DNA of 64,000 bases, taken from Spirochaetaceae bacterium (GTDB taxonomy: Bacteria > Spirochaetota > Spirochaetia > DSM-2461). The notes beneath the pieces are model-generated. The model searched no databases, had not been told where the DNA came from, and worked only from the letters and a program-made list of their open reading frames with translations. Position numbers and translations under genes: made by a program. The DNA lies in the NCBI GenBank assembly GCA_051531975.1, contig JAOPTT010000002.1, forward strand, positions 634,445 to 698,444, in the 5' to 3' direction. Of the stretch, positions 14,721 through 24,068 are shown piece after piece; within the stretch, counting starts at the first letter, position 1, and each line of letters begins with the position of its first letter.

Positions 14721-17369
14721 ATGATTGAAGAAAAAAACGAAATGAAATCCACTATCCTAATTGTAGATGATCAAATTATCTTCATTAAAATCCTTGATGG
14801 CATGTTAAAAGATGAATACCATATTCAGTCAGCCAGCAACGGAAAGCAAGCCATTGATATCGCAATGGGAAAAGATCAACCCGATCTGATTCTTCTGGAC
14901 ATTGATATCCCACAAATGAACGGATTTGATATCTGTCGAAACCTTAAGAACAATGATAAAACCAAACATATCCCTATCATCTTTATCTCAGCTATGAATG
15001 GCACCGAAGATGAAGTTAAGGGTCTGGAACTTGGAGCCGTGGACTTTATCCATAAACCCTTCCAGTTCAATATCGTTAAAGCCAGGATAAAAACACACCT
15101 GAGTCTGAAACTCCTTGATGATCTGGACAGTGCCAATAAAGCTCTGCAGACCGCCATGAGAAACCTCCATACAACTAGGGTTTCTGCAGGGGTCTACTGG
15201 GTTCAGATCCCCGAGGCGAACCTTTATATCCTCTGCGGATGCCCCGCCGACGTTGTGAAGCATCTGATGAAACGAGGCCTTATCTCCACCGTTAAAAAAG
15301 GGGATACCATGTACGAAAATGGGCCTAACGCAATCCTGCTGTCAGATATGATGATGCAAAATGGAAAATTCGCCAACCTCTCGGAATTTCCCATCCTCCA
15401 GATGTTTTACCGCCAGGGCATGATCATACCCAACCATCCGGGGAACACCGGAGAAAGGCCAATCCTAATAGGCCGAGAGGATCAGGTAAAATCCCAAATG
15501 AACTACATCTACCGAGGAACATACGGTATGACATCCATGGAAGAAATCATGGAAGCTGGGGTTTCGCAAGAACTTGCCCAGGAGATTATAGAAATGAAGT
15601 TGAAGTTCGCCTATGGTAATATCCGAGCCACAGAAGAAGCCTTAGATTCAGTTATAGTAAATAAAGAGTTAATAGAGATTAAGAACGGAGTTTATATCCG
15701 GAGGGTCGATCACAACCGCTATGAATTCCAATACAAAGGTTTATCCACCATAATTGACTTAAACTTACAGCCCAGGGAAAATTACGAATCCCCCTACGAG
15801 CTGGGGTACCACGAAATAGAACGTGAGTATTTTGCGGTGATACACTCAGGAGAAGGTAACGGCTGGGATGTCAATCGACCATCTATGGGTAGCGTCTTAA
15901 TGTACCAAGGTGAAATCTATCTTATTGATGCCGGCCCCAATATACTATCGACCATCAGAGCCCTAGGCATTGATATCAGCGAGATCAAGGGTGTGTTTCA
16001 TACCCATTGCCATGACGACCATTTTGCCGGTCTTCCATCCCTTATGCGTTCGGATCATAAAATCAAATACTATGCGACTCCCCTGGTTCGGGAGTCGGTA
16101 GCTCGAAAACTGGCCTGCCTCATGAACATCCAGGAACAGGACTTCTACCAGTACTTTGATGTCCACGATCTTGAGCTCGATAAATGGAATAACCTTAATG
16201 GCCTTGAAGTAAAGCCACTATTCTCCCCTCATCCCGTAGAAAACAACCTTTTTATTTTCAGAACAATGGGAGAAGATGGATACAAATCCTACGCTCACTG
16301 GGCTGATCTTATATCCCAGGACCTTTTAAAATCCATGGTGTCCTTACCTGGGAAACCAGGGATCTCACAAAAGTTCTATGAAAAAGTCCTGGAAGACTAC
16401 CATTATCCAGCGGATCTAAAAAAACTGGATATCGGTGGTGGGATGATACACGGACAGGCCGGGGATTTTCGGAATGACCTATCTGGAAAAATTATTCTGG
16501 CTCATAAAGATGTGGCTCTGTCCGACATCGAAAAAGAGGTGGGCTCCCAGGCTGCCTTCGGGGTCATGGATGTCCTGATTCCCTCGTATCAGACCTACCT
16601 GCGTAAACAGGCCTTTTCCTACCTTAGAGACTACTTCCCTTCGGTTCTAGCGAACCAACTCCAAACCCTCCTGAACTCTAAAATGGTATCCTTTAATCCA
16701 GGAACCATAATACAAAAAGGAGGAGAACAGGTTCAATGGGTCTACCTGATTCTTGCGGGGAGCGTTGAATACATCCAATCGGATTCCGGTATACATAACA
16801 GCCTGTCAAATGGTTCTTTTGTAGGTGAAATATCCATCCTACGAAAAATACCGTCAGTTGGAACTTTTCGGGCGCTATCTCATGTTAAGGCTCTGCGCTT
16901 TTCATCCTACCAGTATCAAACCTTCCTAGAAATAAATGGTTTGTATAAAGAAATGAATAAAATTATCAATCATGTGCAATTCCTTCAGAAAACCTCCCTC
17001 TTCGGTGAAGGGATATCCTATCCTATCCAGAATAAAGTAGCACAGGTCCTTAAGTCATTGACAGTCTCTGACGGTCAAATCGTAATTCCGGAAACCATCA
17101 AAAGCCTATATATGGTCAAATCTGGAGAGATTCAACTTGTCCACCCCTCGGGTCATATTTCTGAAAAATTGGGATCTGGCACCTACTTCGGCGAACAGAG
17201 CTTTTTTTCTTCAGAACCCTTCCAATTCAAGGTCGTGGCAACAGGAATAACCGAATTGTATCTAATCCAGGATTATTCTCTCCTTGAGATTCCTATAGTG
17301 CACCTTAAGCTCTTAGAAACACTTTCAAAAAGAAAAATCATCCTTGAGAATGTTTTTCCAGGCTTATAA
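14721..17369 (+). CDS. Response-regulator receiver domain fused to a metallo-beta-lactamase-fold hydrolase and two cyclic-nucleotide-binding domains
   Basis: REC: ILIVDD, DLILLD, IIFIS, HKPF. MBL: LIDAG, FHTHCHDDH, PHPVE, IHG, LAH. cNMP-like: YLILAGSVE..GSFVGE and YMVKSGEIQ..GTYFGE. Confidence 0.82.
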   Translation: MIEEKNEMKSTILIVDDQIIFIKILDGMLKDEYHIQSASNGKQAIDIAMGKDQPDLILLDIDIPQMNGFDICRNLKNNDKTKHIPIIFISAMNGTEDEVKGLELGAVDFIHKPFQFNIVKARIKTHLSLKLLDDLDSANKALQTAMRNLHTTRVSAGVYWVQIPEANLYILCGCPADVVKHLMKRGLISTVKKGDTMYENGPNAILLSDMMMQNGKFANLSEFPILQMFYRQGMIIPNHPGNTGERPILIGREDQVKSQMNYIYRGTYGMTSMEEIMEAGVSQELAQEIIEMKLKFAYGNIRATEEALDSVIVNKELIEIKNGVYIRRVDHNRYEFQYKGLSTIIDLNLQPRENYESPYELGYHEIEREYFAVIHSGEGNGWDVNRPSMGSVLMYQGEIYLIDAGPNILSTIRALGIDISEIKGVFHTHCHDDHFAGLPSLMRSDHKIKYYATPLVRESVARKLACLMNIQEQDFYQYFDVHDLELDKWNNLNGLEVKPLFSPHPVENNLFIFRTMGEDGYKSYAHWADLISQDLLKSMVSLPGKPGISQKFYEKVLEDYHYPADLKKLDIGGGMIHGQAGDFRNDLSGKIILAHKDVALSDIEKEVGSQAAFGVMDVLIPSYQTYLRKQAFSYLRDYFPSVLANQLQTLLNSKMVSFNPGTIIQKGGEQVQWVYLILAGSVEYIQSDSGIHNSLSNGSFVGEISILRKIPSVGTFRALSHVKALRFSSYQYQTFLEINGLYKEMNKIINHVQFLQKTSLFGEGISYPIQNKVAQVLKSLTVSDGQIVIPETIKSLYMVKSGEIQLVHPSGHISEKLGSGTYFGEQSFFSSEPFQFKVVATGITELYLIQDYSLLEIPIVHLKLLETLSKRKIILENVFPGL

Positions 17370-17550
17370 TCCCGTGGTGTAGTTTAATACTTCCGTCCAA
17401 AAGAACACAGGACTAAAAGAAAGCTATCTACACTTGTACATAATGAAGAAGTTTCAGATAATATTGGTAATAAGTTAGAAACTTAAAATATTGGTGAGAA
17501 AGATCTTAAAGTCGTTGAACTTTAGAAGATCTTCTGGGTTAGAGGTATAA

Positions 17551-18216
17551 ATGAGTAATTTAGTAAAAGCAGTACTGTTTGATATGGATGGAGTATTAGT
17601 AGATTCGGAAAAGTTTATCTGCCAAGCTGCAATAAGCATGTTTAAAGAACTTGGATTAACTGTTAAAGAAGAGGATTTCCTGCCTTTTGTAGGTGCTGGA
17701 GAGAATTCTTACCTTGGTGGGGTAGCAAATAAATACGACCTGGATTTTGATTTAACTAAGGGCAAAAAAAGAACATACGATATCTACCTTGAGATGATAA
17801 AGGGTAAACTTAACTGTCTTCCTGGTGTAGAAGAGTTTATTAAAGAGTGTAGAAAAAGAGATATTAAGATTGCAGTTGCAACAAGTGCAGATTATGTAAA
17901 GATGAATGCTAACTTAGAGGAGATTGGACTACCAGCACAAACTTTTGATGCTGTTGTTAATGGTCTTCAGGTGGAAAGAAAAAAACCATACCCTGATATC
18001 TATAAATTAGCAGCTTCTTTAATAGATGTAGACCCTAAAAACTGTCTGGTTGTAGAAGATGCAATAAATGGTATTGAAGCAGCAAAAGCAGCCGGTGCTA
18101 AATGCCTTGCTTTAACAACCAGTTTTCCTAGGGATTTATTACAACAAGCTGATTGGATCATACCAGATCTATCATATGTTAATGAAGTTATCGAAGAGAT
18201 GTTTGTTATTAAATGA
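17551..18216 (+). CDS. HAD family phosphatase (beta-phosphoglucomutase-like)
   Basis: FDMDGVLVDS, VATS, KPYPDIY and VEDAING motifs. Confidence 0.9.
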   Translation: MSNLVKAVLFDMDGVLVDSEKFICQAAISMFKELGLTVKEEDFLPFVGAGENSYLGGVANKYDLDFDLTKGKKRTYDIYLEMIKGKLNCLPGVEEFIKECRKRDIKIAVATSADYVKMNANLEEIGLPAQTFDAVVNGLQVERKKPYPDIYKLAASLIDVDPKNCLVVEDAINGIEAAKAAGAKCLALTTSFPRDLLQQADWIIPDLSYVNEVIEEMFVIK

Positions 18217-18259
18217 TTCATACATTGTTTATACGTTCCTATTGATGTAAGATCCAGTT

Positions 18260-18577
18260 ATGAAGAAAATATTTATACTTACACACCCTAAGAAAAAGAA
18301 AGACAGATTATTTGAAGAAGCCAAACGTGACGTAAAAAAGTACATAAAAAGAGAGACTAGCAAAGCATTGCCAGAAGATTTTGATTCTTGGATATTTGAT
18401 TGTAGATTTGGTAAAACAGAAGATGAAGCTAAAACAATAGATAGGAATGATATAACTAAAAATATTGATGCCGCTCAAAAAGAGGATCTGGATTCATTTT
18501 ATCTGGAAATATTAGCAAGACCTTGGAATAAACCCGCAAGTGTATTTATTGATAGATCAGAAGAATCTACTGATTAA
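18260..18577 (+). CDS. DUF6172-like conserved hypothetical protein
   Basis: Recognisable pattern KKYIKRE..KALPEDFDSWIFDCRFG...SFYLEILAR; family assignment is from memory. Confidence 0.65.
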   Translation: MKKIFILTHPKKKKDRLFEEAKRDVKKYIKRETSKALPEDFDSWIFDCRFGKTEDEAKTIDRNDITKNIDAAQKEDLDSFYLEILARPWNKPASVFIDRSEESTD

Positions 18578-18591
18578 TATAATTTTTTAGT

Positions 18592-18631
18592 AAAAAAAAA
18601 GCACAGAGCCTTTAAAAGACTATCTGTGCTT
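18592..18631 (-). terminator. Intrinsic terminator (minus strand)
   Basis: Stem GCACAGA...TCTGTGC followed on the minus strand by nine T residues (A9 at 18592-18600). Confidence 0.75.
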
Positions 18632-18772
18632 ACTACTGTGAGTGTTTATATCTCACTATAATCCCACGTAGGAGATTATCTTTATATTATTATGTAACTA
18701 ACTTTTTTTTTCAATTAGGTGGTTCACCCTCATTATTCAATAATACAGCCCCCTCATAATCAGAATTTACTT

Positions 18773-19030
18773 CTAACTTACTAACTAACTTTATTACTAA
18801 CTAACTAACTTAATTACTAACTATTTTTAAAACTAACTTAAAAACTAACTAACTTAAAAAACTAACTAACTAACTTAAAAAACTAACTAACTTAAAAAAC
18901 TAACTAACTTAAAAAACTAACTAACTTAAAAACTAACTAGCGCTATAACTAACTTACAAACTAACTTACAAACTAACTTACAAACTAACTTACAAACTAA
19001 CTTACAAACTAACAAACTTACTAACTAACC
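18773..19030. repeat. Low-complexity tandem repeat array of CTAA/CTAAC units
   Basis: Block of A5-6(CTAA)nCTT units at ~18829-18937, palindrome TAGCGCTA at 18938-18945, then four perfect AAACTAACTTAC copies at 18958-19005 plus variants. Confidence 0.95.
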
Positions 19031-19038
19031 TACTTATA

Positions 19039-19067
19039 ACTATAAGCTCCAATATTAAATAGCGCAA
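19039..19067 (-). promoter_or_regulatory. Sigma70-type promoter pointing into the repeat array
   Basis: -35 TTGCGC (19067-19062), exactly 17-bp spacer, -10 TATAGT (19044-19039), AT-rich upstream tract. Confidence 0.65.
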
Positions 19068-19152
19068 TGTTTTTCTCATTAAATTGTAAAGAAAATAAAA
19101 TAACACTTCGATTTCTTTAATATTTGAAGTGCTAAAATAATAACAGTAATCA

Positions 19153-20643
19153 TTATATTCTACTTAGAAAACTATCCATATATTTGAATATGTTATCAAG
19201 TTTAACAGACTCAACTTTTGTCATTTCAATATCTACGAATTCTTTTAAATCATTAAGAGGAATACCTTTCAGAGCTGATTTACCAAGCAGTGCTGCTCCA
19301 AAGGAAGTTGCTTCACTAATGTTAGTAATATACACAGGATTATCCGGGTACATTGATGCTATTAGTTTTATATAAACATCGTTATTTCTAAAGCCACCTT
19401 CAATATAAATAGGAGAACCTTTTGGTGCTTTAACTCTATCTATAGATACTTTGGTCTGGATAGCCAATGAGAGATTTAACACAGTATAGGCATATTCGTA
19501 GTTCTCAAAAAAACCGGGATTATTATTAGTAGTTATTTCATTAGTGGAATAAATCCTCTTATCCTCAATTACCACTGGAGAAGTCTCAGGAAACTGCCCT
19601 GCCCCTTTCATTATTCCAGGAATAATATATTCAGAATTTTTATTAATTATGGATTGTATTAAACCCATATCAAAATTGGGGTAATCCTCTTTATTGTTAA
19701 TCTTTTTTATTAGAGTCATATAAGTTTCAAACTCTAGACCACCCATAAAAATAGCGGTTTTAACAAGATCCTGCTCTGCTGATATGTTATAAAATACAGT
19801 TTTCCCTATTTCATCCTTAGAAAATGAGTACTCTTTTGTTGGGTGCATTACAACACACCATGTTCCAGTGGAATTCAGTATAAAATTATCATCACCCTTT
19901 AAAAGATATGGTATTAACGATGAGTTAGAATCATGAATCCCTACAGTAACAACAGTATCTTGGCTGAGTCCAGTTAATAACGCCATCTCTTTTGTTATAG
20001 TCCCAAGGACCTCGCCTGGATTTTTAACTTCTGTTGGTAATTTAGATTGAATATTTAGTTTATTAACTACATTTGACCATGTCCAATCTTTAAAATTCCA
20101 TAAATATGTGTGGCACCCAGTATACGTATAATCAGCAGCAATTTTTCCAGTAAGTTTGTACCCAAAATAACTAGGATACATAAGAATATTTTCTGTTTTT
20201 TTATAATCCTCAGGATATCTTTTCTGAATAAAATAGATCAGTTTTGCTAGGTTAATTAACGGTTTAACCTGGGCTGTTCCTGTCTCTTCCTGAAGTGTAT
20301 CAGCAGTGCCAACCAGATTATTAAATTCGTTGTGAAATTTTTCAGTTACTTCATTGGTATATGCTACAACAGGAACTGCAAGATCACCTTTGTTATCAAT
20401 ACAAACACATGTTGCTCCATGGGTTGAAATAGAGATCGATTTAATGTTGTATTTTTTACTAAATACCTTCAGGTTTTCATAAAACCATCTCTCAATCTCT
20501 TTTACATTTTCAACATCAAGTTCTCCATGATTAACTGTAGGGATTGAACTATAAATAGAATCAATCTGTCTTAATTTATCATCATAAATTACTATTTTTT
20601 TATTTGTCTTCCCAATATCCAGTACTGCTATAACATATTCCAT
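19153..20643 (-). CDS. FGGY family carbohydrate kinase (probable rhamnulokinase)
   Basis: VLDIGKTNKK, STHGAT, GIHDSN, STGTW, EGGF and ATSFGAA motifs; downstream of rhaA. Confidence 0.85.
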   Translation of the reverse strand: MEYVIAVLDIGKTNKKIVIYDDKLRQIDSIYSSIPTVNHGELDVENVKEIERWFYENLKVFSKKYNIKSISISTHGATCVCIDNKGDLAVPVVAYTNEVTEKFHNEFNNLVGTADTLQEETGTAQVKPLINLAKLIYFIQKRYPEDYKKTENILMYPSYFGYKLTGKIAADYTYTGCHTYLWNFKDWTWSNVVNKLNIQSKLPTEVKNPGEVLGTITKEMALLTGLSQDTVVTVGIHDSNSSLIPYLLKGDDNFILNSTGTWCVVMHPTKEYSFSKDEIGKTVFYNISAEQDLVKTAIFMGGLEFETYMTLIKKINNKEDYPNFDMGLIQSIINKNSEYIIPGIMKGAGQFPETSPVVIEDKRIYSTNEITTNNNPGFFENYEYAYTVLNLSLAIQTKVSIDRVKAPKGSPIYIEGGFRNNDVYIKLIASMYPDNPVYITNISEATSFGAALLGKSALKGIPLNDLKEFVDIEMTKVESVKLDNIFKYMDSFLSRI

Positions 20644-20744: not shown

Positions 20745-21848
20745 CTATTTAGATTGAGAAAATCTATATTTTTCTACTTCCCAGTTTCGTATAAAATCAA
20801 TTTTATCTTTTGGCATAAATTGAACACCACCAAAACTTTCACAATAGACAACAATTTTTACATCATCTATAAATAACTGCTTTGCTTTATTTGCAAGAGA
20901 CATTGTACTGTTAAAAGCAAACGCCCCAATGCCAGAAATTACAACTAATCTAGGATTGCTACCATTTTCTTTTACAAAATGAATCAGATTTTCTTTTAAA
21001 TTATCAAGACTAGATGAATAAACAGGTTTGAATCCATAATAGACTATGTGATCAGGAGTTAGAGATAACTTTAATGGAGCAAATGTTTCTTCTGTTTTTA
21101 TTAAAGATAATATATCACTGTTTGCAAATGCTGTAACTTCAACACCTTCTATTGTCTCTTTAATGATCTGGGCTACTCTATCTGCGTCTGCCCTGTTTAT
21201 ATGTATCTGATTAACATCAGGAAACTTAGTTACATGGTCTTTTATTGATTTAATAATACTGTCATATACTTTATCAATTTCTTCAATATTATGGCCATAA
21301 ACAAATACACCATGATTCTGAAGGAATATCATTTCAGGGTACTCTTTACCACTTTTTACATGTCCATCAATTTTATCTTTAACTTCTTTAGACAGAATAT
21401 AACCAGGATTAGTAACAGGAATCCAGATAGCCTTATCGCCAAACATTTTAGCTACAGCCTGTTCTCCCTCAATACTGCATGTTAAAGCATTTATTAATGC
21501 GGGATGTGTATGCACAACATATTTATATGGCAACAGAGCGTGCAAAAGTGTTTCTACACTAGGTCTTTTCTCTTTCTGACCCGGGAAACGTGATTCCATT
21601 AGATCAACTAGAACTTCTTCTTCCCTTACATCACTATCTTGTGAATAGGATTTAGACCATATGTTATCAAGTTTTTTAAGATCAACTTTTACAAAGCCAT
21701 CCTCTGTAATTGTAGCAAGTTCAGTTCCAGAACCTTTTACATACATAAACTCTTCAGTTTTCCAGGATGTATTACCACCACCTGCAATAACATATTCAGT
21801 ATCGACACCATATCTATTGGATACGGCTATCAGGGTTTCCATACTCAT
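20745..21848 (-). CDS. Class II aldolase/adducin family protein (probable rhamnulose-1-phosphate aldolase)
   Basis: GGGNTSWK, VKGSG, RPSVETLLH, VVHTHP, LQNHG and TPDH motifs. Confidence 0.85.
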   Translation of the reverse strand: MSMETLIAVSNRYGVDTEYVIAGGGNTSWKTEEFMYVKGSGTELATITEDGFVKVDLKKLDNIWSKSYSQDSDVREEEVLVDLMESRFPGQKEKRPSVETLLHALLPYKYVVHTHPALINALTCSIEGEQAVAKMFGDKAIWIPVTNPGYILSKEVKDKIDGHVKSGKEYPEMIFLQNHGVFVYGHNIEEIDKVYDSIIKSIKDHVTKFPDVNQIHINRADADRVAQIIKETIEGVEVTAFANSDILSLIKTEETFAPLKLSLTPDHIVYYGFKPVYSSSLDNLKENLIHFVKENGSNPRLVVISGIGAFAFNSTMSLANKAKQLFIDDVKIVVYCESFGGVQFMPKDKIDFIRNWEVEKYRFSQSK

Positions 21849-23102
21849 CTATTTTCTCCCAGCCAATACTGTCTCTTCATATGTTTGAACATTTTCTATT
21901 AGCTCACGATCTGTAGCTACACCCATCTCTTTACAATATTGATCCCATATTATTCCAAAAGGTTTTGTTTTAACTTCTTCTAAAAGAGCTAATCTACCAA
22001 AATTGTTACCATTTTCTTCATAGGATTTAAGTTGTTTATAAGGTTCTAAAAGTGCAAATAGCAGACCTTTAAGTGAAGCTCTAGATCCTACAGCCCATGC
22101 TCCTATTCGATTTAAAGTACCATCAAAAAAGTCTAGACCAATATAGGTATTATCAACTTTTCCAGAACGTACAAGTTCCTGCATTAAAGCGTAAATATCA
22201 TCGTTTAAAGTAACAACATGGTCTGAGTCCCATCGTACTGGTCTAGAGACATGTAATAACATTTCATCAAGATACTGGTATAGAGATGATATTTTATCTG
22301 CAATAGATTCTGTTGGATGAAAATGTCCAAGATCCAGGCATAACATTTTATTTCTAGTTAATGCATAACCCATATAAAACTCATGGGAACCAACAACAAA
22401 AGATTCACTACCAATTCCAAAAAGTTTACACTCTACAGCGTCTTTTATCTCTTTATCATCTAATTCAAGTGCAAAAACCTCATCAAGAGACTCTTTTAGT
22501 ATTGTTCTGTGGTCCATTCGACTTACAACACTGTCTTTTGCACCATCTGGAATCCATAGATTATGAACTGAAGGTGACCCCTGTTCTCTACCAAAATATG
22601 CTGTAATCTCTCTGGCTCTTTTAACGTGGTCTATCCAGAAGTCTCTAACTTTTTTATCTTTACTACTTAGAGTAAAACCTGAATCAGCCATAGGATGAGA
22701 AAAGCATGAAGCATTAAAATCAAGTTTTACACTGTTTTTTTTAGCCCATTCTACCCATGTTTTAAAGTGTTTTGGTTCTATCTGGTCTCTATCTACTTTT
22801 TCACCTTTAAAATCACCATAAATAGCATGTAAGTTCAGTCTATGTTCCCCAGGAATAAGGCTATATACTTTTTCAAGATCCTTTCTTAATTCTTCCACAT
22901 TTCTTGCTTTACCAGGATAGTTACCTGTTACCTGAATACCACCACCTGATAGTTCTGAATCCGCAGTTTCAAAGCCACCAACATCATCACCCTGCCAACA
23001 GTGAATTGATAAAGATATCTTTTTTAGTTTTTCTATAGCTGATTTAACATCAACACCTATCTCTTCGTATTGTCCTTTCGCGTAATCGTACATATTAGTC
23101 AT
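21849..23102 (-). CDS. rhaA: L-rhamnose isomerase
   Basis: SIHCWQGDDVGGFE, TGNYPGKAR, ECKLFGIGSES, DLGHFHPTE, HVSRPVRWDSDHVV; true start ATG 23102 with RBS AGGAG. Confidence 0.96.
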   Translation of the reverse strand: MTNMYDYAKGQYEEIGVDVKSAIEKLKKISLSIHCWQGDDVGGFETADSELSGGGIQVTGNYPGKARNVEELRKDLEKVYSLIPGEHRLNLHAIYGDFKGEKVDRDQIEPKHFKTWVEWAKKNSVKLDFNASCFSHPMADSGFTLSSKDKKVRDFWIDHVKRAREITAYFGREQGSPSVHNLWIPDGAKDSVVSRMDHRTILKESLDEVFALELDDKEIKDAVECKLFGIGSESFVVGSHEFYMGYALTRNKMLCLDLGHFHPTESIADKISSLYQYLDEMLLHVSRPVRWDSDHVVTLNDDIYALMQELVRSGKVDNTYIGLDFFDGTLNRIGAWAVGSRASLKGLLFALLEPYKQLKSYEENGNNFGRLALLEEVKTKPFGIIWDQYCKEMGVATDRELIENVQTYEETVLAGRK

Positions 23103-23162
23103 AATATAACTCCTGATTCTCTTTAATATATATTCATTATCAATCCGGAATCTATTTCTCAC

Positions 23163-23200
23163 CTTGATTATACCGTCAATTAATAGCATAATTCCGTCAT
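23163..23200. promoter_or_regulatory. Putative RhaS/RhaR-type direct-repeat site
   Basis: CCGTCA at 23173 and 23194 (21-bp period) in the rhaA/araC divergent intergenic region; the second copy overlaps the regulator's ATG. Confidence 0.45.
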
Positions 23201-24068
23201 GAGAGAAGAGCACCATTTACTTGGGGAAAACTTTTTTACTAGTGGTGAGATCCCTTTAAAAATCTTACATCGTGATCCACAGCCGGAATATCCTATCCAT
23301 ACCCATGATTTTTCTGAGTTAGTTATAGTACTAAAAGGTCAAGGTACTCACTTCACCCATAAAAATGATTTTAAAGTGCAGGCTGGGGACCTTTTTGTTA
23401 TAAATGGGGACTTAGCCCACGGATATAAAGACCTGGACAATCTTGTTTTAATAAATATTTTATTTGATATGCAGGCCCTGAAATTACCAAATTTTGATAT
23501 AGGTCGATCCCCAGGTTTCCATACACTTTTTACTATTGAACCACTTTTACGAGAGGATTCTAAATTCTCCAGTCGTCTGAAACTGGATTATAAAGAGATA
23601 GATTTTGTTATTAATTTAGTAAAAAAAATGGAAGATGAATTAAAAAACAGGCAAGATGGATATCACTATTTAACTGTCTCTCTTTTTATGCAGTTAATCG
23701 CTTATTTGTCCAGGTGTTATTCTGATAAATCACGTAACGATAGTTCGAGTCTCTACCAACTGGGGGAGACTATAAGTTTTATAGAACACAATCTGGATAG
23801 GAATATAACTGTTAATGAACTTCTTAATATTTCCCATATGTCAGAGAGCAGCCTTCTCCGTGCATTTAAAAAAATTACAGGGTCCTCCCCTCTAAATTTT
23901 CATTTAAAAAAAAGAATAGACAAGTCGTGTAAAAAACTTATAGAGAGTAATGATTCCATAACAATGATAGCCTATGATATTGGATTTAGTGACAGTAATT
24001 ATTTTTCCAGGCAGTTTAAAAAGATAAAAGGTGAAACTCCTGGAACTTACCGAAAAAGAAGCCGGTAA
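23199..24068 (+). CDS. AraC family regulator (RhaS/RhaR-like)
   Basis: PQPEYPIHTHDFSELVIV cupin and GFSDSNYFSRQFKK HTH; divergent from rhaA. Confidence 0.9.
   Translation: MREEHHLLGENFFTSGEIPLKILHRDPQPEYPIHTHDFSELVIVLKGQGTHFTHKNDFKVQAGDLFVINGDLAHGYKDLDNLVLINILFDMQALKLPNFDIGRSPGFHTLFTIEPLLREDSKFSSRLKLDYKEIDFVINLVKKMEDELKNRQDGYHYLTVSLFMQLIAYLSRCYSDKSRNDSSSLYQLGETISFIEHNLDRNITVNELLNISHMSESSLLRAFKKITGSSPLNFHLKKRIDKSCKKLIESNDSITMIAYDIGFSDSNYFSRQFKKIKGETPGTYRKRSR

Follow-up and report, generated by a model that had tools for sequence, protein, structure and literature searches.

A GTTA-derived repeat array in the 5′ leader of a putative family-restricted small gene of Spirochaetales

We analysed a 64,000-nucleotide (nt) stretch of DNA, hereafter the window, from a Spirochaetaceae bacterium (GenBank assembly GCA_051531975.1, contig JAOPTT010000002.1, positions 634,445–698,444). 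On its minus strand, at positions 19067–18592, a dense array of GTTAG motifs lies between a promoter and a terminator. In the direction of the putative transcription, this element comprises a sigma-70-type promoter TTGCGC-17-TATAGT (19039..19067), recognised by its sequence and by the homologous position in relatives; the GTTAG/AGTTAGT array (18773..19029), which consists of decayed GTTA units and forms nearly the whole 5′ leader; a Shine-Dalgarno (SD) site, GAGGGGG (18749..18755), 8 nt ahead of a TTG start; a tiny open reading frame (ORF) running from this TTG to a TGA (18711..18740), which encodes 9 amino acids (aa), (M/L)NNEGEPPN, and is conserved in relatives; a lone AGTTAGT motif, identified by sequence, in the linker between the ORF and the first hairpin (18697..18703); hairpin 1 (18658..18679) and hairpin 2 (18638..18656); and an intrinsic terminator with a GC-rich stem and U9 (18592..18631). 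The initial annotation, made from the sequence alone, had described the locus as a stand-alone non-coding RNA made of GUUAG repeats, possibly a sponge for an RNA-binding protein. The stand-alone part of this description agreed with our analysis, as the element has its own promoter, hairpins, and terminator. It is not made of the repeats, however, since 17 of 19 homologous units have no array, and it is not simply non-coding, because the conserved core consists of the SD site, the tiny ORF, the hairpins, and the terminator.

Within 257 nt of the minus strand (19029–18773), 28 GTTAG motifs were counted, and the base content was T129, A72, G54, and C2; the manual estimate of about 28 motifs in some 260 nt almost free of C was accurate. 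The longer motif AGTTAGT occurred in 25 copies. In 2000 mononucleotide shuffles of the array, GTTAG appeared 0.83 times on average and five times at most. The array holds 31 UAG triplets, whose start-to-start spacing was 4 nt (12 times), 12 nt (11 times), or 13 nt (4 times). Stop codons made up 21, 13, and 16 of the 87 codons in the three frames, in keeping with the density of stops remarked on at the outset. The source genome, G000 (5.46 Mb, 31.5% G+C, 98.5% complete), contained no second array of this kind, and GTTAG was not enriched genome-wide (4238 and 4189 copies on the two strands). A scan of G000 for smaller clusters gave 19 places with at least three GTTAG, all scattered or coding except the array, and no candidate regulon was obtained. 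The next-densest spot, with seven copies (C14:186400–187300, minus strand), encodes a long acidic tandem repeat rich in Glu, Asp, Leu, and Val (EELDEVEELDE...-type).

The make-up of the array was investigated with Tandem Repeats Finder, which reported a period of 4 with 63.2 copies and 64% matches, aligned to (CTAA)63, and higher-order periods of 16 and 17 with 74–89% matches. The apparent spacers between the motifs (TTTGTAA five times, TTTTTTAA four times, and others) corresponded to GTTA units that had acquired point changes before being amplified again, in blocks of 12 nt and 17 nt. Judging from the 64% match to (CTAA)63 together with these re-amplified blocks, the array seems to be a microsatellite in decay, on its way to becoming a minisatellite. 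It is a short-unit tandem repeat of microsatellite make-up, as simple sequence repeats (SSRs) are, and it is placed between the −10 box and the SD site of a conserved ORF, where repeat number could alter expression. The predicted fold of the 442-nt RNA was not more stable than that of shuffled sequences (z −1.15), and its minimum free energy structure had an ensemble frequency of almost zero; the array RNA is predicted to lack stable structure.

In a DNA search of relatives, the non-repeat tail (18772–18592) was conserved and the array was not. A covariance model built from nine units detected the unit in 16 of the 38 genomes of one Spirochaetales family, and a refined model, used later, added G006. 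In total, 19 units were found in 17 genomes of three genera. By genus, the first model found the unit in 4/4 genomes of g1 (which includes G000), 4/4 of g3, 8/11 of g4, 0/14 of g2, 0/4 of g5, and 0/1 of g6. Applied to 45 other families of the class, represented by 145 genomes, the refined model found no unit; the order-level set consisted of the same 38 genomes as the family set. Rfam 15 gave no match on the unit (window 17500–20000, E up to 10) or on six homologous loci (E up to 1), in accordance with the earlier remark that no described RNA family has this layout. Among the papers listed by literature searches, none dealt with GUUAG/UUAG arrays or with the spirochaete unit.

Genome contigs were also scanned with a pattern for the ORF core, which returned five loci, namely three g3 units already found and two chance matches. 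At one of the chance matches (L017, the end of a contig from a Gastranaerophilales metagenome-assembled genome), two near-identical copies of about 90 nt lie within about 200 nt; this element carries a long GGGTGAGCCACC...GGTGGCTCA hairpin and is unrelated to the spirochaete unit. Scanning of metagenome contigs for the junction of array and leader yielded 60 loci, none of which proved on inspection to be the unit or an array; GTTAG counts reached at most 6, at a site with no relation to either.

An array-less paralog was identified in the same genome (G000:C2:605095–605310, minus strand; L037 1501–1674), 29 kb before the window start. It has a promoter TTGTGT-17-TATAGT, the same GAGGGGG SD site, the tiny ORF, hairpin 1, and a degenerate terminator without a U-run, and it was 82% identical to the tail over the 145 nt matched. 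Its branch in the unit tree was long (0.33 versus 0.024), and the paralog may be a decaying duplicate. About 1.2 kb from it in C2 lies an FMN riboswitch (RF00050; L037 185–319, minus strand) that scored 93.5 bits, above the gathering score.

The tiny ORF was examined across the family. An SD-like site (GGAGG, GAGGAG, AGGAG, or GAGGGGG) and the tiny frame were present in all 19 units; the frame was 8–18 aa long, and only the first eight residues were conserved, with the consensus M-N-[NK]-E-[GS]-E-P-P. The start codon was ATG in 13 units, TTG in 4, CTG in 1, and ATT in 1. Codon 4 was Glu in 17 units and codon 7 was Pro in 17 (CCA 12, CCG 5), while codon 8 was Pro in 13 (CCT 4, CCA 6, CCC 3) and Thr in 5. 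The mean pairwise differences at codon positions 1, 2, and 3 were 0.30, 0.24, and 0.49, respectively, the third position varying most, and this pattern suggests that the ORF is conserved as a peptide with synonymous variation. A small helix placed inside the ORF by RNAalifold was not supported (66.7% of cells paired), and constraint in this region would hence act on the peptide. The segment of the SD site and the ORF was predicted to be open (fold z 0.52), and the ORF is probably translated. The statement that the locus has no ORF longer than about 11 codons was correct as such and overlooked the conserved nine-codon frame behind the SD site. By eye, a linker motif akin to AGTTAGT was also seen in G003 (TAGTTAGTA), and an imperfect one in the paralog (ATTAGTT).

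The secondary structure downstream of the ORF was assessed by folding and covariation. Hairpins 1 and 2 folded together at −11.6 kcal/mol (z −2.65) and the terminator at −15.1 kcal/mol (z −4.5), with T9 at 18600–18592. In alignment A2, in which 18 units were fitted to the covariance model, 93.6% of the cells could pair and compensatory changes were observed in 17 of the 23 pairs. Hairpin 1, helix 2 of A2, had 6/7 pairs changed on both sides with 96.6% of the cells paired; the corresponding values were 5/5 and 94.4% for hairpin 2 (helix 3) and 5/9 and 96.9% for the terminator (helix 4). None of 500 shuffles reached 17/23 compensatory pairs, and slid controls were 32–51% paired. An independent alignment of nine units by MAFFT and RNAalifold gave 8/23 compensatory pairs. 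The two hairpins and the U9 terminator proposed from the single sequence were accordingly backed by both folding and covariation.

TTGCGC (19067–19062) and TATAGT (19044–19039), separated by a 17-nt spacer, formed the best TTG-anchored site in the 330 nt upstream of the unit, and transcription would start near 19033. The promoter noted previously is present, and a promoter of the form TTGnnn-17(±1)-TAnnnT was top-scoring at the homologous position in 13 of the 19 units. It was visible by eye also in G003, G014, G022, and G045; G019 had the −10 box without a TTG at 17 nt, and G006 was left out of the promoter inspection. A generic consensus scan missed both the promoter (8/12 versus a threshold of 9) and the terminator. 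Here, 266 nt separate the −10 box from the beginning of the conserved unit, versus 17–20 nt in the other units with a best-scoring homologous promoter, indicating that the leader gained about 250 nt. Right after the start site, a 5′ stem-loop of the GTTC-loop-GAAC type was recognised by eye in 14 of the 18 units inspected; G002 and G003 had different hairpins at this position, and both G000 copies had none.

Only two of the 19 homologous units carried an array; the 17 without one included the paralog. The sequence GTTAGTTAGTTAGTTAG (at most one mismatch) was found in only 2 of the 38 family genomes, G000 and G002, in both cases in the leader of the unit. In G002, the array is pure (GTTA)n, a microsatellite that totals at least 135 nt and runs to two contig ends; one of these contigs (C65) carries the homologous promoter and the 5′ hairpin, and the other (C97) carries the unit from the SD site through the ORF to the hairpins. 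The expectation that relatives carry similar arrays thus held for this one congener and failed for the other units.

Contigs from RNA libraries were compared with the locus. A 167-nt contig of run X4 (depth 13.3, one mismatch, one gap) covered 18652–18819 and linked the SD site, the ORF, and hairpin 1 to the final 47 nt of the array, and a 218-nt contig of run X2 (six gaps) covered 18680–18850. The flanking genes had no contig cover in RNA runs X2–X4. In X4, the array was not covered beyond 18819, and in X3 only array-like pieces of 45–66 nt, mostly 90–95% alike, were found and the unit had no cover. The array pieces of X2 had a depth of about 300 versus 3.6 for the ORF part, and such array-like pieces may stem from other organisms. 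As this RNA evidence consists of contigs, whose depth and holes carry no weight as proof, it gives a weak hint that a transcript includes the array. Contigs of other samples, which may likewise represent other organisms, differed by indels of 1–3 nt in the T-runs of the array.

On balance, we lean towards the explanation that the array is a fast-evolving GTTA-derived repeat that expanded in the 5′ leader of a new, family-restricted small gene, where it tunes the RNA or is tolerated. Positions 19067–18592 would then form a small gene in its own right, belonging to a gene family that, within the genomes searched, is restricted to a single family of the Spirochaetales. The sigma-70 promoter would drive an RNA that consists of a strong SD site, the tiny ORF, an A/U-rich linker, two hairpins, and the intrinsic terminator, about 200 nt long without the array and about 440 nt with it. 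The repeat presumably began as a tetranucleotide microsatellite, gathered point changes (GTTT, GTAA, and T-runs), and was later amplified anew in blocks of 12 and 17 nt. In the leader, the repeat would take the place of the 5′-terminal stem-loop of most homologs and extend the ORF-bearing RNA at its 5′ end by a transcribed stretch that is unstructured, C-free, and rich in stops. There it may alter the half-life or translation of this RNA, with slippage giving heritable length variation, or it may simply be tolerated; either way, the array would not be the reason that the gene exists.

The proposed gene resembles dual-function small RNAs, such as SgrS/SgrT, RNAIII/hld, SR1/SR1P, and AzuCR/AzuC, in being a short transcript with its own promoter and terminator, a conserved small ORF behind a good SD site, and a conserved structured RNA. 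It differs from them in that the ORF has only 8–18 codons for amino acids, of which the first eight residues are conserved, and in that it is restricted to one spirochaete family without an Rfam entry. For a repeat in leader position, the nearest documented analogue is hmw1A of Haemophilus influenzae: its upstream (ATCTTTC)n repeat is transcribed in the 5′ untranslated region (UTR), sets expression by its length, and supplies one arm of a long hairpin that RNase III cleaves (PMC12721329). Both cases have a tandem repeat between promoter and start codon that is transcribed in the leader and whose copy number differs between lineages, and by analogy the array could act as an expression rheostat. 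Unlike the hairpin arm described there, the array is C-free and predicted to be unstructured, and the gene is a small RNA with a tiny ORF, not an adhesin.

Several observations weigh against the view that the repeat is no more than a tuner or a tolerated passenger. Two species share a GTTA-type motif in the leader of this gene without being sister species by RpoB, the single marker on which the species relationships rest here: G000 grouped with G001 (84/89), and G002 was nearest to G003 (94.0% identity). In the unit tree, the two G000 copies were sisters (97/95). Given these two relationships, either two gains or one gain and at least three losses are required, and both scenarios hint at selection or at a mutational bias of this site. 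In addition, all distinct block types kept the GTTAG core unbroken, whereas the intervening sequence differed. Two loose contig ends, each read by eye over 30 letters, point the same way. In one, a low-depth DNA contig end of run X1, promoter-like sequence leads straight into the array; this contig is not from G000, because G000 has only one array. In the other, an RNA-library contig end of X2, the array leads into an AGGAGG site. Together, they suggest that further array-bearing variants exist in nature. Recurrence is the main argument for the array being more than noise.

It is possible, if unlikely, that the array is instead a selected module for docking or titrating a protein, in which 25–28 single-stranded AGUUAGU motifs titrate or recruit an RNA recognition motif (RRM) protein of the RRM-1 type or ribosomal protein S1. 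A fuller version, in which the module evolved or was retained more than once in this marine spirochaete genus and makes an abundant, stable ORF-bearing RNA a multivalent decoy or docking platform for a UAG-reading single-strand-binding protein, most plausibly RRM-1, is to our mind a little more doubtful again. CsrB, RsmY, RsmZ, and CrcZ are stand-alone protein-sponge small RNAs with many copies of a short motif; in the Csr/Rsm sponges, the motifs are multiple GGA (A(N)GGA) sites, mostly in hairpin loops. The present RNA resembles these in running from promoter to terminator with many motif copies predicted to be single-stranded, and differs from Csr/Rsm sponges in its motif (AGUUAGU, not GGA), in the absence of the array from 17/19 homologs, in its conserved SD site and tiny ORF, and in the decaying-microsatellite make-up of the array in place of hairpin-presented sites. 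G000 has one CsrA match (G000:C16:84763–84918), which we regard as irrelevant since the array has no GGA (0 in 257 nt, 1 in the 442-nt RNA). TRAP (MtrB) binds 9–11 (G/U)AG triplets 2–3 nt apart, at a regular 5–6 nt from start to start, and HutP binds UAG triplets with 4-nt spacers, 7 nt from start to start. Repeated UAG triplets in single-stranded RNA are common to both and to the array, whereas the spacing here is 4, 12, or 13 nt and never 7 nt; in G000, there was no match to PF02081 (TRAP; the Bacillus subtilis control was positive) or PF09021 (HutP), and Hfq was not found either. RRM-1 would be the most plausible partner. G000 encodes one such protein (C6:270788–270997), the array is predicted to have no stable structure, the core motif is intact in all block types, a lone AGUUAGU also stands in the linker of the G000 unit and of G003, and the array recurs in the same leader of two non-sister species and possibly in environmental variants. 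Moreover, RbpB, an RRM-1 protein from Bacteroides, had a dissociation constant of 5.1 µM for three copies of the G/U/A motif GUAGGAUA and did not bind a C/U-rich motif (bioRxiv 10.1101/2021.04.27.441718). Since RbpB binds a UAG-containing G/U/A motif with micromolar affinity, an RRM sponge is chemically plausible. Against it, 36 of the 38 family genomes encode RRM-1 proteins whether they have an array or not, and the array-bearing G002 (81% complete) yielded none; most homologous units have no array; and G000 offers no other GTTAG clusters, nor any enrichment of GTTAG, as natural targets. As the G002 version is a pure microsatellite and the blocks in G000 are recent tandem duplicates, the 28 copies do not represent 28 independent conservation events.

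A cis-acting leader-peptide attenuator, in which ribosome pausing at Pro-Pro would control the terminator and the downstream gene and the array would be an irrelevant insertion, is improbable and was rejected as the principal explanation, because the downstream genes are convergent or variable and no antiterminator was seen. Salmonella mgtP and mgtL are leader ORFs with proline codons, and the tiny ORF shares with them a very short frame with consecutive Pro codons (13/19 units) ahead of a strong terminator. In 12 of 18 units, the terminator is followed after 19–220 nt by an ORF on the same strand, and all four g3 units precede a conserved ORF pair. Unlike in mgtP and mgtL, however, no alternative antiterminator pairing was seen by eye, the two hairpins and the terminator covary as they stand, and the downstream gene is not conserved: it is convergent in 6/18 units, including that of G000, and its identity changes between lineages. 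Three g4 units and G006 also have P-T in place of P-P, and G002 and G003 have no Pro pair. Because the downstream gene is not fixed and no antiterminator alternative was seen, we read the unit as a stand-alone small RNA gene bearing a small ORF. Still less probable is that the array belongs to the 3′ UTR of the rhamnose operon upstream, or is a neutral intergenic repeat without its own promoter. That operon, on the same strand, comprises rhaA (21849–23216), a class II aldolase gene (20745–21848), and an FGGY kinase gene (19153–20643) by Pfam, and the array begins 124 nt past the kinase stop. The hairpin and U-rich stretch after this stop (19101..19134, minus strand; −8.9 kcal/mol, z −1.94) is a possible terminator of the operon and a weak one, and the generic scan, as described, failed to find the promoter. 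The promoter is nevertheless homologous in sequence and position to those of units in unrelated neighbourhoods, and the RNA-library contigs, as a weak indication, cover the unit and not the kinase gene. Finally, we give very little credence to an assembly artefact or a wrong array length. Logan unitigs of the likely source run, X1, do break inside the array, one low-depth X1 joint with a shorter side of only 20 nt skips 167 nt of it, and the homologous array breaks the G002 assembly. By contrast, zero-mismatch X1 unitigs tile parts of the array at a depth of about 43, against 40–45 in the flanks; contigs enter the array from both sides; the repeat blocks (about 70–90 nt) are shorter than typical reads; and the array sits in a 698-kb contig.

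The skipping X1 unitig joins the two sides of window positions 18822–18990, has 11 other letters at the joint, and had a depth of 12.7 versus about 40 in the flanks. It may stem from a variant with a shorter array in the same sample, or from a relative.

The locus adds to the Spirochaetales an undescribed, family-restricted small gene with a conserved eight-residue peptide start (MN-E-EPP) and no Rfam entry. It also offers a natural experiment, in which the same gene carries a GTTA-type leader repeat of more than 130 nt and of about 250 nt in two congeners, and none in the paralog and the other relatives. Should the array do no more than tune expression or be tolerated, it would join the SSRs that are transcribed in bacteria. 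Should it bind a protein, it would represent a new type of sponge in a phylum with poorly known post-transcriptional control; a decoy for an RRM protein would be the first bacterial sponge RNA of this kind and the first built from a microsatellite.

As to the surroundings of the units, the gene downstream of the element in the window is a convergent DUF6172 gene on the plus strand (18260–18577), 16 nt away. In g3, all four units (L021, L022, L024, and L025; about 1690–2760 in locus coordinates) lie 19–36 nt ahead of an ORF of about 255–265 aa ending in LDLWG. The second downstream ORF in this genus encodes about 89–94 aa beginning with MG.EKGAAALKW, which we take to resemble an FlhB C-terminal-domain protein. 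Elsewhere in the window (14721–17369, plus strand), an 882-aa protein is encoded that combines a response-regulator receiver, a metallo-beta-lactamase fold, and two cNMP-binding domains.

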